In this document: positions 93 to 26,241 of the stretch, in pieces | Position numbering within the stretch: the stretch's first letter is position 1 | Layout: the number at the start of each line of letters is the position of its first letter | Virus record (IMG/VR): IMGVR_UViG_2541047885_000002 | Location: 1 to 26,915 of that record | Direction: 5' to 3' (one strand) | DNA from: a virus | Lineage: Duplodnaviria > Heunggongvirae > Uroviricota > Caudoviricetes | Length of the DNA stretch: 26,915 nucleotides | The notes under the pieces: model-generated | The model's database searches: none | Told to the model about the DNA's origin: nothing | The model's input: the letters and a program-made list of their open reading frames with translations, nothing else | Made by a program: the position numbers and the translations under genes

Positions 93-1053
93 GTACATCG
101 GCACGGCATCCTACTTCGACCCTGAAGAACTATACAGCGCGCGAGAGTTTTACCATGACACTATCAACGCTTTCTACGGCAAGCAGCAGTATCTGTTTAA
201 TCCACCGTGGGAATCTCTGGCAGATAAATTCCAGTTCCGTGAGGCAGAGTTGACGCTGGTCAATGGTGTGAACGGTCACGGAAAAACGGAGGTTGTCGGG
301 CATATGGCACTTGAGGCAATGCGTCAGGGTGTGAAGACATGCATCGCGTCACTTGAGCTGAAGCCTGGTATTCTCCTTAAGCGCCTTACCCGTCAGGCGA
401 CGTGCTGCAAGATGCCGCCAGTGCTGGAAATTGACTCTGCATTTAAATTTTATGACGAAAGACTTTGGGTGTTTGGCCTGACCGGAACGGCGAAAGCCGA
501 CAGGCTGATCGAAATATTCGACTACGCTCGCCGCCGATACGGGATCCAGTTATTCATCATCGACAGCCTGATGAAATGTGGCATAGGCGACGATGACTAT
601 AACGGGCAGAAGGCTTTTGTTGACTCGATTTGCGACTTCAAAAACAAAACAAACTCCCACGTCATTCTCGTTACTCACTCGCGAAAAGGAGACAGCGAAG
701 AAAAACCAACCGGGAAAATGGACGTAAAAGGCTCTGGAGCGATAACAGACCTGACAGACAACCTTTTCATCATCTGGCGTAACAAGGCTCGCGATAGAGC
801 GTTACAGAGAGTTCAGAGTGGTGAAAAGATGTCAGAGAAGGACGAACAGCTACTGGCATCTCCGGCATCTGTTTTGATGCTTGAAAAACAACGTAACGGC
901 GAAGGTTGGGAAGGTGGTGTCCCGTTGTTCCTTGACGAGCAATCGCACCAGTTCCTGCAACTTGAATCAGGATCGCCATATAGCTACATCGCCAATATGC
1001 CGAAATCGGAATATGACGAGGCGTGGAGACAGGAAAACGTGACGGAGTATTAA
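16..1053 (+). pseudogene. 3' portion of a DnaB-family replicative helicase gene (P22 gene 12 position), 5'-truncated by the IS insertion; the first 25 codons of the ORF derive from the IS end
   Basis: The ORF is open to the window start. From nt 93 on the protein shows a Walker A-like NGVNGHGKTE, a Walker B-like LFIIDSLMKCG and the RecA-fold layout of DnaB-type helicase C-terminal domains. It sits immediately upstream of the nin region. The identity break at nt 92/93 marks the IS junction. Confidence 0.7.
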
Positions 1054-3713: not shown

Positions 3714-3916
3714 CGTTCTCAGTAAAAACCATTCCAGACATGCTCGTTGAAGCATACGGAAACCAGACAGAAGTAGCACGCAGACTGAAATGTAGTCGCG
3801 GTACGGTCAGAAAATACGTTGATGATAAAGACGGGAAAATGCACGCCATCGTCAACGACGTTCTCATGGTTCATCGCGGATGGAGTGAAAGAGATGCGCT
3901 ATTACGAAAGAATTGA
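3710..3916 (+). CDS. ninH: NinH
   Basis: 68 aa [39 protein letters not shown]..., matching lambda NinH; ATGA overlap with the ninG stop. Confidence 0.93.
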
Positions 3917-4565
3917 TGGCAGCAAATACCGAAATATTTGGGTAGTTGGCGATCTGCACGGATGCTACACGAACCTGATGAAAAAACTGGAGACGATAGG
4001 ATTCGACACCAAAAAAGACCTGCTTATCTCGGTTGGCGATTTGGTCGATCGCGGTACAGAGAACGTCGAATGTCTGGAATTAATCACATTCCCCTGGTTC
4101 CGAGCTGTACGTGGAAACCATGAGCAAATGATGATTGATGGCTTATCAGAGCGTGGAAACGTCAATCACTGGATGCTTAATGGCGGTGGCTGGTTCTTTA
4201 ATCTCGATTACGACAAAGAAATTCTGGCTAAAGCTCTTGCCCATAAAGCAGATGAACTTCCGTTAATCATCGAACTGGTGAGCAAAGATAAAAAATATGT
4301 CATCTGCCACGCCGATTATCCTTGTGACGAATACGAGTTTGGAAAGCCAGTTGATCATCAGCAGGTAATCTGGAACCGCGAACGAATCAGCAACTCACAA
4401 GACGGGATCGTAAAAGAAATCAAAGGAGCGGACACGTTCATCTTTGGTCATACGCCAGCAGTGAAACCACTCAAATTTGCCAACCAGATGTATATCGATA
4501 CCGGCGCAGTGTTCTGCGGAAACCTCACATTGATTCAGGTACAGGGAGAAGGCGCGTGGGCATAA
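3894..4565 (+). CDS. ninI: NinI, Ser/Thr protein phosphatase (lambda-PPase, metallophosphoesterase)
   Basis: Starts [28 protein letters not shown] with the GDLHG, GDLVDRG and GNHE metallophosphatase motifs; SD GGAG upstream of ATG 3894. The track's longer ORF from 3819 is rejected as an upstream in-frame extension. Confidence 0.93.
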
Positions 4566-5074
4566 GAGAACTAAACCTCACCAAAGAACAGCATGAGTGG
4601 CTGAATGGCTGGCTTGAACTGTGGGGCGCATGGGTTTATTCAGGTCGTCTGGAAAAGCGCATGAGCAGCGTAATAGCGAAGTTCATGGAGAGCGTAGAGC
4701 CGGGAAGAGTTATGACAAGGCCAATGTGCAATGATGATGATGGAATGTTGATTTCTCAGGTCGTCGATTCCGTCATGTACATTGACAAAAAAGCCTTTGG
4801 CATCCTCCTCAGCTACTACGCTCATGGTTCATCTAAGCGAGCAATTGCATCCTACTATCACGCGACTGCAAAGCCACGCAAGATGTGTGGACGTGGTGGC
4901 GAGGGATGGAGAAAACCTTCACTGGCAACCTGTAGAAACGAAATTGACGACATCCTGAAAGCGTCATTATTTGTTTTATACCAGCCAATGCAAAATGCTT
5001 TCAAAATGCGTAAACGTGTTGAGAAAGTTAAGCATGTTGCTGTTAAAAGCCTTGACATGCAATTAGCCATTTAG
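4556..5074 (+). CDS. Q: Late antiterminator Q (phage 21/933W-type, not lambda-type)
   Basis: Position directly after ninI and directly before a promoter-terminator pair. N-terminal LELWGAW resembles the LERWGAW motif I recall from Q of 933W/H-19B. Start taken as GTG 4556 after GGGAGAAGG; the exact start is uncertain. Confidence 0.7.
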
Positions 5075-5081
5075 CCATAAT
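5052..5081 (+). promoter_or_regulatory. Candidate late promoter PR' (sigma70), overlapping the 3' end of Q
   Basis: TTGACA (5052-5057), 18-bp spacer, CATAAT (5076-5081). Location matches PR' of lambdoid phages, where the qut site overlaps the promoter. Confidence 0.6.
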
Positions 5082-5122
5082 ATTCACATATGCTGCTGCT
5101 TTTGCATTCAGCAACCATCACA

Positions 5123-5146
5123 AGCCCACCTCCTGTGGGCTTTTTT
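5123..5146 (+). terminator. Intrinsic terminator, candidate tR' (target of Q antitermination)
   Basis: Stem GCCCAC (5124-5129), loop CTCCT, stem GTGGGC (5135-5140), then TTTTTT; about 60 nt downstream of the predicted PR' start. Confidence 0.75.
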
Positions 5147-5268
5147 GCATTCGCGTGCAATCAAAACAAGAGTCTTAGTGATATGGGCCTGAGATATGGT
5201 GGTGGAAACATCGCTCCGCTCTTGGCTGTCATATCTACGCGAACAGGCTCTATCCCTAAGGTAAAGCG

Positions 5269-5781
5269 ATGAAAGAAATAAAATTAACGCCAGAAATGGT
5301 GCTTTCTGTTGTTGATTACAATCCATCATCAGGCGACTTTCACTGGAGATGGAGGCAGGGGAGAGAGAGGACCACTTTGACATGGAACTCTCGTTTTGCT
5401 TTCAAGAAATGCTCATCAATAAATTCTGATGGGTATTTAATGATTATGATTAATGGTAAAGCATGCCCTGCTCACAGACTGGCATGGTTGATTGTTTATG
5501 GCACCATGCCCGATGGTTTTATTGATCACATCAACAGGGTAAGAACAGATAACCGGATATCAAATCTTCGTCTTGTCACTCATTCCGAAAATATGCAAAA
5601 CAGGAAAATTCAGAAGAATAATAAATCTGGATACCGTGGCGTGTCTTGGGATGCTAAGTACGGGAAATGGAGAGCAAGAATTAATGCGTCTGGAAAGTGT
5701 ATTAACCTTGGATACCATGACACTGCCGAACTTGCCGCTGCGGCTTTTGAGGCAGCCAGAATGAAATATCATACCGTTTAA
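5269..5781 (+). CDS. HNH endonuclease with C-terminal AP2-type DNA-binding domain (moron)
   Basis: HNH core ...AHRLAWLIVYGTMPDGFIDHINRVRTDNRISNLRLVTHSENMQN... and AP2-like SGYRGVSWDAKYGKWRARINASGKCINLGYHDTAELAAAAFEAA. SD AAGGTAA upstream. Confidence 0.8.
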   Translation: MKEIKLTPEMVLSVVDYNPSSGDFHWRWRQGRERTTLTWNSRFAFKKCSSINSDGYLMIMINGKACPAHRLAWLIVYGTMPDGFIDHINRVRTDNRISNLRLVTHSENMQNRKIQKNNKSGYRGVSWDAKYGKWRARINASGKCINLGYHDTAELAAAAFEAARMKYHTV

Positions 5782-5787
5782 AGATGT

Positions 5788-5832
5788 AAGCTGCCGTTAG
5801 TGACTCTTAAGTTGCAACGGTGGCTTTTTTTA
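5788..5832 (+). terminator. Putative intrinsic terminator after the HNH gene
   Basis: AAGCTGCCGTT (5788-5798) pairs with AACGGTGGCTT (5816-5826) including two G-U pairs, 17-nt loop, then a T7 run. The large loop lowers confidence. Confidence 0.45.
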
Positions 5833-6080
5833 TTTGCACAACAGGTAAGAGCATTGAGTCGATAATCGTGAAGAGTCGGCGCGCCTGGTTAGCCAGTGCT
5901 CTTTCCGTTGTGCTGAATTAAGCGAATACCGGAAGCAGAACCGGATCACCAAATGCGTACAGGCGTCATCGCCGCCCAGCAACAGCACAACCCAAACTGA
6001 GCCGTAGCCACTGGCTATCCTGAATTCATCAGTGATAGTTACGCTGCGGCCTTCTACACATGACCTTCGTGAAAGCGGGT

Positions 6081-6115
6081 GGCAAGAGGTTGCGCTAACA
6101 ACCTCCTGCCGTTTT
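6081..6115 (+). terminator. Strong hairpin plus U-tract in the late leader (candidate terminator or RNA structure)
   Basis: GGCAAGAGGTTG (6081-6092), loop CGCTAA, CAACCTCCTGCC (6099-6110) giving 11 of 12 pairs, followed by GTTTT. Confidence 0.5.
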
Positions 6116-6215
6116 GCCCGTGCATATCGGTCACGAACAAATCTGATTACTAAACACAGTAGCCTGGATTTGTTCTATCAGTAATCGACCTTATTCCTAA
6201 TTAAATAGAGCAAAT

Positions 6216-6231
6216 CCCCTCAATGAAGGGG
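6216..6231 (+). promoter_or_regulatory. Hairpin sequestering the holin Shine-Dalgarno sequence (sdi-like)
   Basis: CCCCT (6216-6220) pairs with AGGGG (6227-6231), loop CAATGA; the 3' arm is the holin SD, 6 nt before ATG 6238. Confidence 0.5.
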
Positions 6232-6237
6232 TAGAGC

Positions 6238-6441
6238 ATGTACCGTATGGACAAAATCAGAGAATGGTTCAGTTACAGCTTCGGAGGACTGACTGCGATG
6301 GGTGGCATTCTCTCCCTGAATGACTGGGCTGTCATCATTGGTATTCTTTGTACTGTCGGCACATTTGGCATCAACTGGTACTACAAGCGCAAAGAGCGCG
6401 AGGACAGATTGAATGGCAATGTCACCGGCACTACGAAATAG
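6238..6441 (+). CDS. Holin, phage-21 S-like class II pinholin with dual-start motif
   Basis: 67 aa, two TM segments (Gly-rich [17 protein letters not shown] and [19 protein letters not shown]), charged C-terminus, N-terminus MYRMDKI paralleling S21 MKSMDKI. Immediately upstream of the endolysin. Confidence 0.8.
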
Positions 6442-6916
6442 CGTAATAGCGGCGATAAGTGGCGGGGCTATTGCTATAGCATCTGTGTTAATCACTGGAC
6501 CAAGTGGTAACGATGGCCTGGAAGGTGTCAGCTACATACCATACAAAGATATTGTTGGTGTATGGACTGTATGTTACGGGCATACAGGAAAAGACATCAT
6601 TCCCAGTAAAACGTATACCGAAGCAGAATGCAAAGCCCTCCTGAATAAAGACCTTGCCACGGTCGCCAGACAAATTAACCCGTACATCAAAGTCGATATA
6701 CCGGAAACAACGCGCGGCGCTCTTTACTCGTTCGTCTACAACGTGGGGGCTGGCAATTTCAGAACATCGACGCTTCTTCGCAAAATAAACCAGGGCGATA
6801 TCAAAGGCGCATGTGACCAGCTACGTCGCTGGACATACGCTGGCGGTAAGCAATGGAAAGGGCTGATGACCCGTCGTGATATTGAGCGTGAAGTCTGTTT
6901 GTGGGGGCAGCAATGA
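6413..6916 (+). CDS. SAR endolysin (T4-lysozyme-like, phage 21 R-type)
   Basis: N-terminal Gly/Ala-rich signal-anchor-release segment ([17 protein letters not shown]) followed by the lysozyme core [25 protein letters not shown]; near-identical to R21 as I recall it. Confidence 0.9.
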
Positions 6917-7350
6917 GCAGGGTAACCGCGATTATCTCCGCTCTGGTTATCTGCATCATCGTCTGCCTGTCATGGGCTGTTAATCATTACCGTGATAACG
7001 CCATTACCTACAAAGAGCAGCGCGATAAAGCCACATCCATCATCGCTGATATGCAGAAGCGTCAACGTGATGTAGCAGAACTCGACGCCAGATACACAAA
7101 GGAGCTTGCTGATGCTAACGCGACTATCGAAAGCCTCCGTGCTGATGTTTCTGCTGGCCGTAAGCGCCTGCAAGTCGCCGCCACCTGTGCAAAGTCAACG
7201 ACCGGAGCCAGCAGCATGGGCGATGGAGAAAGCCCAAGACTTACAGCAGATGCTGAACTCAATTATTACCGCCTCCGAAGTGGAATCGACAAGATAACCG
7301 CGCAGGTTAACTACCTGCAGGAATACATCAGGACGCAATGCCTGAAATAA
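6913..7350 (+). CDS. Rz: Rz (i-spanin)
   Basis: [34 protein letters not shown]... matches the lambda Rz N-terminus; ATGA overlap with the endolysin stop. Confidence 0.9.
7112..7297 (+). CDS. Rz1: Rz1 (o-spanin lipoprotein) embedded in the +1 frame of Rz
   Basis: [36 protein letters not shown]: lipobox LAVSAC followed by a Pro-rich segment; SD AAAGGAG 7 nt upstream; lies wholly inside Rz. Confidence 0.75.
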
Positions 7351-25979: not shown

Positions 25980-26179
25980 GTAAAGAATGTTGTTTCTGCG
26001 GCATTAGCGAATCAGACGCTGATCAAACATACATTTACTCTAAAGAAACAGGTCGGATGCTGTGTAGTGACTGCGTGTTGGACATCATAAGATACAAGCA
26101 TCTTGGATGTTCTGCCAGCATTAGCAATATAGGTGAAGTATACGAAGGGAAAGATATAACTGATAGAGCAGAAAGTTGA
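25976..26179 (+). CDS. Small Cys-rich (zinc-ribbon-like) protein
   Basis: 67 aa with CCFCG ... CSDC; ATGA overlap with the arc-like stop; between arc and the antirepressor gene. Confidence 0.5.
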
Positions 26180-26241
26180 AGCCCCAACTGCTGGAACAGT
26201 CAGGGCTTCGGTATCAACAAATCGGCTTAGGAAATATTGAC

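Follow-up and report, generated by a model that had tools for sequence, protein, structure and literature searches.

A proposed alternative-pairing leader upstream of the holin gene

The stretch analyzed here, referred to as the window, comprised 26,915 nt of the virus record IMGVR_UViG_2541047885_000002 (Caudoviricetes), and at positions 6135–6187 it carries two interleaved inverted repeats in the leader of the holin gene. Judging from sequence comparison and predicted folding, the chances are about even that this segment is part of an alternative-pairing leader of the Q-dependent late mRNA, which would set the folding of the holin initiation region. The first of the two helices, a:a′, is a conserved hairpin stem and not a pseudoknot, and its apical part differs freely between leader classes. 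The 3′ arm of this stem, a′, has a second and equally conserved partner, c, which abuts the start stem-loop containing the Shine-Dalgarno (SD) sequence. Taken together, the conserved islands constitute a chain of overlapping complementarities, namely z:a+, a:a′, a′:c and c/anti-SD:SD (Table 1).

Related leaders were collected in four samples. Sample i was anchored on the upstream hairpin with all arms free (98 unique sequences); sample ii was anchored on a′...c, leaving a, b, b′ and the loops free; sample iii was anchored on a...c with a′ free; and sample iv was anchored on the identical holin protein with the whole leader free (80 loci, 57 unique leaders). About 50 leader classes were found; the holins downstream of them belong to at least eight families, and the large majority begin with a dual start. 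Islands z, a, a′, c and the start hairpin are common to at least 33 of these classes, in which the loop (~21–43 nt) and the spacer are replaced. An alignment of 32 leader classes (A2) was used for the pairing counts, 20 classes for the RNAalifold consensus of z:a, and 33 for the two-state folding. Within the lambda type, positions 6131–6240 are nearly invariant, and thus the comparison between classes alone discriminates. In RefSeq, 1,110 of 5,426 complete E. coli genomes carry the module, and nothing is annotated under it there. A search of genome contigs with the pattern GGATTTGTTC N{15,45} CARATCC was rejected as too unspecific; it gave at least 120 matches, and those listed were chance occurrences in unrelated phyla.

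Crossing repeats and the fate of the pseudoknot

Arm a GAACAAATC (6135–6143) is the perfect reverse complement of GATTTGTTC (6167–6175), and this helix 1 can be extended by one G·U pair into 6144. Arm b TGATTACT (6144–6151) and arm b′ AGTAATCG (6180–6187) form helix 2 through seven Watson-Crick pairs plus T6144·G6187. In the order a-b...a′...b′, with 0, 15, and 4 nt between successive arms, the two helices cross as in a pseudoknot. On a check of the sequence, the two complementarities, their coordinates, the single G-U pair and the interleaving were all as the sequence-only reading had described them.

The exact design, defined as nine Watson-Crick base pairs abutting an 8-bp helix with at most one G·U pair, crossing and within a span of 60 nt or less, was found a single time in the 26.9-kb window, and dinucleotide shuffling of the window did not reproduce it in 40 trials. 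With the requirement relaxed to 8 + 8, a crossing design was present in 5% of the shuffled windows, and a looser one with unlimited G·U pairs in 5.5% of shuffled 456-nt leaders. The interleaved design is not a product of chance; the shuffled control that had been proposed as a way to refute it came out in its favor. The two helices behaved differently when folded as hairpins. Helix 1 (6135–6175) reached −12.5 kcal/mol with a z-score of −4.65, and none of 200 shuffles was as good, versus −7.3 kcal/mol, a z-score of −1.17 and 27 of 200 shuffles as good for helix 2 (6144–6187).

The same contrast was found across the classes of A2. The first seven base pairs of helix 1 (its core) were formed in 223 of 224 cells; six cells carried a variant, in each case an A→G substitution that gave a G·U pair. 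Helix 2 was paired in ~43% of cells, compared with 25–45% for partners slid by one to three columns, and its central pair was retained in 2 of the 32 classes. In this comparison across lysis leaders, of the kind suggested together with the pseudoknot, helix 1 was conserved and helix 2 was not. In the non-lambda classes, the segment of arm b is occupied by unrelated sequence; that of arm b′ is replaced in P22-type and other classes, and it is complementary to b in the lambda-type class only. The duplex between loop and spacer likewise reached −7.9 kcal/mol in the lambda-type class only, and its median of −3.0 kcal/mol in 66 other unique leaders equaled the shuffled-spacer control. The natural variants of b and b′, AGTAACCG, AGTAATAG, AGAAATCG, and TGTTTACT, of which the first three are variants of b′, were never compensated.

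These results bear on the proposal that the lysis leader folds into an H-type RNA pseudoknot in which a:a′ and b:b′ coexist. Both complementarities are present in the crossing order, their summed stacking energies are approximately −12.9 and −11.4 kcal/mol, and the shuffled windows lacked the design. However, loops of 0 (L1), 15 (L2), and 4 nt (L3) with stems of 9 and 8 bp are incompatible with a stacked H-type fold. From A-form geometry, the 4 nt of L3 would have to span ~17 bp (~48 Å), which excludes a stacked pseudoknot; a pseudoknot with these loops is conceivable at most as a strained, bent form. The loops are thus too short to cross the grooves of stacked stems. Of the two stems, only stem 1 is conserved. 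In the minimum free energy (MFE) fold, TTACT (6147–6151) pairs with AGTAG (6158–6162) as an apical stem nested in a:a′, leaving b:b′ unused. The 9 bp of a:a′ alone gave −7.9 kcal/mol and −13.9 kcal/mol with the nested apical stem, compared with −4.6 kcal/mol for b:b′ alone; the nested alternative thus gains −6 kcal/mol without any pseudoknot initiation penalty, and the b:b′ hairpin on its own is no better than shuffles. A class-specific role of b:b′ in the lambda type is conceivable, where the whole stretch is nearly invariant. The complementarity b:b′ is lambda-type-specific and at most a class-specific alternative hairpin. With helix 2 at control level across classes, its variants uncompensated and the loops too short, the pseudoknot is extremely improbable, and it was removed as a false candidate.

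A chain of conserved islands

The more general idea of the sequence-only reading, an RNA structure in the lysis leader, was borne out by the hairpin of helix 1. In every class, the islands follow the same order: a+ TCACGAACAAA, loop, a′ GGATTTGTTC, spacer, c GARCARATCC, stem-loop, and start codons. The loop within a:a′ contains class-specific apical stems, and its lengths include 21, 22, 42, and 43 nt. Among 93 unique leaders, arm a occurred as GAACAAACC, GGACAAACC, GAGCAAACC, GAACAAGCC, and GAGCAATCC, mostly A→G changes that keep G·U pairs with a′. By contrast, a′ hardly varied. When left free (sample iii), it was unchanged in 35 of 36 unique leaders, with one terminal C→A variant, and it was unchanged in 79 of the 80 loci fetched by the holin, where the single change was G6166→T.

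In the window, the second pairing of a′, a′:c, amounts to 13 bp with one G·U pair (6166–6178 with 6205–6217), and the fold of 6166–6217 had −14.5 kcal/mol and a z-score of −4.63, a value that none of 200 shuffles equaled. For A2, an alignment whose a′ and c were fixed by the search pattern, RNAalifold gave the a′:c helix as the consensus. The last two C residues of c are the first two residues of the start stem-loop, so that the two elements overlap by 2 nt. This stem-loop, which contains the SD sequence and lies directly 5′ of the first start codon, showed compensatory changes between classes (CCCC/GGGG, CCTCAC/GTGAGG, and CCTCC/GGAGG). The segment 6135–6187 itself lies outside the start stem-loop and ends 29 nt upstream of it; its sole link to it is the pairing of a′ with c. 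The semi-conserved spacer motif pairs with the SD region in the predicted state A of lambda (see below), where it may act as an anti-SD sequence.

At the 5′ side, the chain is continued by TCACGAA (6131–6137), which overlaps arm a by 3 nt and is the complement of island z. The z:a pairing was recovered by RNAalifold in 20 of 20 classes, with G·U variants only, and it also appeared in the MFE fold of the full module in the window. Two IMG/VR prophage contigs (L078 and L121) have lost the equivalent of ~6120–6190, that is a, b, a′ and b′, so that GCCC is joined to TTATTCC, and have kept c, the start hairpin and the holin. Such a joint loss of a through b′ would be in keeping with a and a′ working as partners.

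Within paired positions, arms a and c varied only from A to G on the plus strand, except at positions 8–9 of a, which are outside the 7-bp core. Such changes keep a G·U pair with the U-rich a′ in plus-strand RNA, and they produce a C·A mismatch in minus-strand RNA. This asymmetry also bears on whether the islands act as DNA. Two inverted-repeat protein-binding sites had been considered at first, and a broader version would take a, a′ and c, possibly with z and its complement, as ~10-bp sites for a host or phage DNA-binding protein. The three near-identical 10-mers in direct and inverted orientation fit such sites, as does their conservation as islands while the flanks are swapped. However, equivalent sites should vary alike, yet the U/G-rich a′ stays fixed and the A-rich copies vary from A to G only; a chain of overlapping complementarities that includes z, of different sequence, is not expected of protein sites either. 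A roadblock in a Q-antiterminated operon would also have no obvious role, and we know of no protein motif that corresponds to these 10-mers. We regard binding sites as improbable, and the original version with two inverted repeats is not favored, as b and b′ are unconserved, a′ is fixed, and its A-rich partners vary only in RNA-compatible ways.

The z:a pairing encloses the upstream hairpin domain, which had −17.8 kcal/mol and a z-score of −3.98 and is followed by GTTTTG in the lambda type. This hairpin shows real compensatory changes between classes: pair 26:37 is UA in 11 and CG in 8, and pair 12:57 is UA or CG. It is also the most polymorphic part of the module within the lambda type. In some phages (L480, L252/L271) its loop appears flipped, reading CGCTAA versus TTAGCG or TTGGCG, as if a palindromic hairpin had been inverted at the DNA level.

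The upstream hairpin with GTTTTG and a:a′, in which a hairpin lies between an A-tract and a U-tract, could instead be additional weak or bidirectional intrinsic terminators or insulators, which would keep leaky, Q-independent or antisense transcription away from the holin or Q, the likeness of a, a′ and c then reflecting A- and U-tracts. Tandem terminators in the lambda late leader were reportedly described by Luk and Szybalski in 1983. The start hairpin together with the ATTTG(C/T)TC that comes after it on the minus strand is terminator-like (6231–6216; L002 930–915), and a clear minus-strand terminator is found at the 5′ edge of the module in non-lambda classes. Against this, the scan called no plus-strand site at a:a′ (6135–6190) or at the upstream hairpin (6081–6110 plus GTTTTG), and a:a′ does not present a stable G+C-rich hairpin with a U-tract directly behind it on the transcribed strand. 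Once the A:U-tract pairs are left out, just −1.2 kcal/mol remains for the apical hairpin preceding a′, the P22-type upstream hairpin has no T-run, and generic A- and U-tracts leave the exact 10-nt identity across classes unexplained. A terminator function is thus unlikely, if somewhat less so than DNA-binding sites.

The edge terminator also raises the question of a minus-strand small RNA (sRNA) that would span c, a′ and a and end there, similar to the convergent prophage sRNAs near PR′. Convergent sRNAs are known at the moron site (PMC4104026), Pas sRNAs adjoin holin operons (bioRxiv 10.64898/2026.05.13.724894), and the minus-strand terminator upstream of the module shows compensatory stem changes in most non-lambda classes. 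However, this terminator is absent from the window and from lambda, the module yielded no sigma-70-like promoter on the minus strand, A→G changes would create C·A mismatches in the minus-strand RNA, and no Rfam matches to AgvB, AsxR, STnc100 or Esr41 were obtained. A minus-strand sRNA is accordingly very improbable. A small-RNA survey of P22 infection gives no antisense RNA for the gene 13 leader (PMC13397905). In L002, the edge terminator (751–767, minus strand) is a canonical intrinsic one with a hairpin followed by TTTTCTTTT.

Three further candidates were tried and rejected. The sRNAs AgvB and AsxR (PMC4104026) and Pas come from the same lambdoid-prophage neighborhood, but they have no Rfam match in the leader. 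The P22E sRNA (P22 19,716–19,816; PMC13397905) stops ~170 nt upstream, within the hairpin that marks the module's 5′ edge, and lacks a and a′. Its 3′ end is stated to be 48 nt from gene 13 (PMC13397905). In our alignment with L004, its end ...AAAACCCAGAAC fell inside the edge hairpin, ~170 nt upstream of gene 13 and not 48, and P22E probably corresponds to the 5′ portion of the late leader RNA. A leader-peptide attenuator was discarded for want of a conserved open reading frame (ORF): the window ORF at 6032–6184 has no lambda counterpart, lambda has just a 24-codon GTG ORF inside the upstream hairpin, and loops of 21, 22, 42, and 43 nt break any common frame.

Two predicted states of the leader

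For the reading of 6135–6187 as part of an alternative-pairing leader, the whole module of 33 classes was folded with either a:a′ forced (state A) or z:a together with a′:c forced (state B). All 33 classes could form z:a and a′:c, and 32 of them (all except L259) could form a:a′. The ensemble free-energy difference, B minus A, had a median of +2.4 kcal/mol and ranged from −5.6 to +11.9 kcal/mol, and state B was favored in 9 of the 33. State B is the MFE fold in the window by 1.8 kcal/mol, and lambda favors state A by 4.7 kcal/mol. The leader thus has two mutually exclusive and conserved helix sets of similar predicted stability that involve the initiation region. The predicted openness of the SD sequence was 0.41 in state B versus 0.31 in state A (Wilcoxon p = 0.0015; ORF-verified starts).

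Folding of successively longer 5′ prefixes gave an ordered series of optima: z:a came first, a:a′ took over once a′ was present, and z:a plus a′:c once c was present. In lambda, the P22 type and L252, the optimum returned to a:a′ and the start hairpin once the SD arm was present. In the window only, TCTGATT (6143–6149) can pair with AATCAGA (6252–6258) inside the holin coding region, a long-range helix that contributes to state B being the predicted optimum.

In such a leader, state A would combine a:a′ with a closed start stem-loop. State B would combine z:a with a′:c, which would take up part of the anti-SD arm and loosen the start stem-loop. The preferred pairing would toggle during transcription as each island emerges, and the balance or the kinetics between the two states would set the fold of the dual-start initiation region. 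The amounts of holin and antiholin, and with them the timing of lysis, might be affected in consequence. As a more specific proposal, the four islands may represent an undescribed RNA toggle on top of the sdi stem-loop of lambda, P22 and their relatives, one that switches during transcription or in response to a signal and sets the holin:antiholin ratio and the lysis clock. We put this forward as speculation from folding models, possible but rather unlikely in this full form.

Several observations weigh against a two-state leader. With so little variation in the islands, the helices of a, a′, c and z showed no double-compensatory covariation across classes, and the case for RNA pairing is consequently built on complementarity, conservation, and wobble-only changes. 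A→G is the commonest transition available in A-rich arms anyway. About 10 of 80 lambda-type leaders have TTCGCGA in z, where the T→C change is an uncompensated C·A mismatch that breaks z:a. In three classes (L275, L277, and L373) the hairpin after c contains no SD sequence, and the holin start lies ~70 nt further on. The predicted change in SD accessibility is small and class-dependent, and the energies come from nearest-neighbor models that are sensitive to the ends of the construct. Leaders of distant holin relatives (Yersinia, Klebsiella Mulock, Morganella, APSE-7, Enterobacter, and mEp021) were unrelated and lacked the module, so that no compensatory evidence is obtainable from them. Finally, the module is confined to one recombining gene pool, and shared ancestry inflates its apparent conservation.

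In the same three classes, the holin downstream of z, a, a′, c and the CCCC...GGGG hairpin is of a different family and is accompanied by a GH19-like endolysin.

The restriction to a single recombining pool is also what would be expected if the islands were functionless linkers, that is, short boundary homologies kept as crossover points of mosaic exchange among lambdoid phages. Mosaic junctions do lie between the islands, which are found bordering loops, spacers, and holins that are unrelated to one another. However, linkers would leave unexplained the ordered mutual complementarity of the islands, hairpin stabilities far above those of shuffles, and the difference between a fixed a′ and pairing-compatible changes in a and c. 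We hold this explanation to be about as improbable as that of DNA-binding sites.

The timing of lysis by the lambda S holin is a textbook molecular clock, and to our knowledge the sdi stem-loop at the start codons is the only described RNA-level control of it. If the islands compete for the anti-SD side, the leader would have a second, longer-range control element beyond sdi, and the same element precedes at least eight unrelated dual-start holin families. If the toggle were true, it would add a regulatory layer to a much-studied lambda gene and occur in roughly one in five complete E. coli genomes. In any case, a structured module of ~170 nt that is absent from annotation pipelines and Rfam was identified. 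Rfam 15 gave no match at gathering score in the leader (AgvB, AsxR, STnc100, Esr41 and others), and at E ≤ 10 there were two chance-level matches only, ctRNA_p42d (14.7 bits) and CRISPR-DR10 (12.9 bits). A full-text literature search, which did not extend to the classic S-gene papers, found no description of the module.

Comparison with known leader systems

The sdi stem-loop and the dual-start motif have been described previously (PMC3359269). As in lambda S and P22 gene 13, the window has a stem-loop (6216–6231) with a G-rich, SD-like 3′ arm and two in-frame starts, M-Y-R-M, and the sdi of lambda itself is at the homologous position of a nearly identical leader. However, the element at 6135–6187 lies 30–100 nt upstream of this stem-loop, and the holin of the window belongs to class II (HP1 family) and is not lambda S. 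As far as could be established, the upstream partners a, a′, c and z are undescribed as part of sdi.

In the lambda cIII mRNA studied by Altuvia and colleagues, alternative structures of similar stability exist, one of which hides the initiation region. The two mutually exclusive leader conformations of similar stability resemble this case. Nevertheless, there is no sequence relationship, and the helices of the window reach ~170 nt upstream, whereas the cIII switch is confined to the surroundings of its start codon and responds to RNase III and temperature.

In the hok mRNA, translation of a small membrane-damaging protein is controlled by the tac, ucb, dcb, and fbi boxes, which exchange partners while the transcript is being elongated; in the MS2 maturation-gene leader, initiation is possible only until the final fold has formed. 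Overlapping complementary boxes occur here as well, and the prefix folding of the window gave comparable toggling. The window differs from these systems, with which it shares no homology, in having neither an antisense RNA nor signs of 3′ processing, and kinetic control would be hypothetical.

Classical H-type pseudoknots share with 6135–6187 the crossing order S1-5′, S2-5′, S1-3′, S2-3′ on paper, but the loops of the window do not allow the stacked fold, and S2 is unconserved. The trp-type attenuators (1:2, 2:3, 3:4) are similar in their successive overlapping segments and two alternative helix sets; the window differs from them in having no conserved upstream ORF and in a last helix that is the SD hairpin and not a terminator.

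Gene context of the leader

The placement in a lysis-gene leader, which had been proposed from the sequence, was confirmed by the genes (Table 1), since holin, lysozyme, and Rz follow, and a lambda-like leader between tR′ and S precedes them. The element sits 51–103 nt upstream of the holin ATG (6238), in agreement with the ~50–100 nt given earlier, and the otherwise ORF-free ~450 bp corresponds to the interval between the HNH-AP2 ORF and the holin, which has short, unconserved ORFs only. The holin begins with M-Y-R-M, with start codons at 6238 and 6247, and thus has two in-frame starts with one to two codons between them including a basic residue. In other leader classes, the holin starts with MKM, MKKM, MFRM, MKNM, MNKM, or MKRM.

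Positions 5825–6233 of the leader are 96.6% identical to phage lambda (L001) between tR′ and S, and the element is lambda's own sequence directly upstream of S. The sub-module at ~6065–6233 is shared at 95–96% with HK022, HK106, and Sf101, and the stretch 6065–6179 matches P22-like Salmonella phages at 74–84%.

Table 1. Features of the late leader and neighboring genes in the window.
Feature	Position	Strand	Description
NinI-like phosphatase	3819–4565		Pfam and ORF analysis
Q antiterminator	4556–5074		Pfam and ORF analysis
pR′-like promoter	5052–5081		
Terminator	5122–5142		
HNH-AP2 endonuclease ORF	5269–5781		Domains HNH_3 and AP2
Gene-free late leader	5782–6237		456 nt
Island z (TTCGTGA)	6066–6072	+	First conserved island; complementary to TCACGAA at 6131–6137
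Upstream hairpin domain	6075–6121	+	Core stem GGCAAGAGGTTG (6081–6092):CAACCTCCTGCC (6099–6110); outer stem CGGG:CCCG
Island a+ (TCACGAACAAATC)	6131–6143	+	5′ half (6131–6137) pairs with z; 3′ part is arm a and pairs with a′
Island a′ (GGATTTGTTC, also written GGAUUUGUUC)	6166–6175	+	Pairs with a (6135–6143) or c (6208–6217)
Spacer motif (TTCCTAAT; consensus AUUCYUAAU)	6194–6201	+	Semi-conserved, anti-SD-like, in the a′:c loop
Island c (ATAGAGCAAATCC; core GAGCAAATCC, 6208–6217)	6205–6217	+	Direct repeat of a and complement of a′
Start stem-loop (CCCCT/AGGGG)	6216–6231	+	3′ arm a putative G-rich SD-like run; −7.5 kcal/mol
Class II holin, HP1 holin family	6238–6441	+	Pfam PF16080, E 4e-21
Lysozyme	6413–6916		
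Rz	6901–7350		

The ORF with the HNH_3 and AP2 domains, together with a plus-strand terminator after it (~5790–5833), separates Q, the promoter and the first terminator from the lambda-like leader. This ORF has the appearance of a homing-endonuclease-type insertion, located at the classical moron site. Further downstream, a long imperfect hairpin at ~5836–5915, GCACAACAGGTAAGAGCA...TGCTCTTTCCGTTGTGC, is identical in lambda and resembles an RNase III-type substrate; RNase III sites have reportedly been mapped in the lambda late leader. Within this hairpin is CACAACA, the consensus of GcvB targets (PMC4104026).

The following segment, 5916–6002, is 83–98% identical to rV5-like myophages, to several records labeled as Campylobacter phages and to phage P7. 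Its counterparts are annotated as tRNA-OTHER or tRNA-TERM in some of those records, and ARAGORN found no tRNA in positions 5000–6300 of the window. The segment may be the remnant of a tRNA gene or a mobile fragment.

On the minus strand at 26174–26240, the Rfam sar RNA (RF00262) was matched with 69 bits (E 1e-12). Since sar is the antisense regulator of ant in P22, this indicated that the window carries a P22-type immI region.

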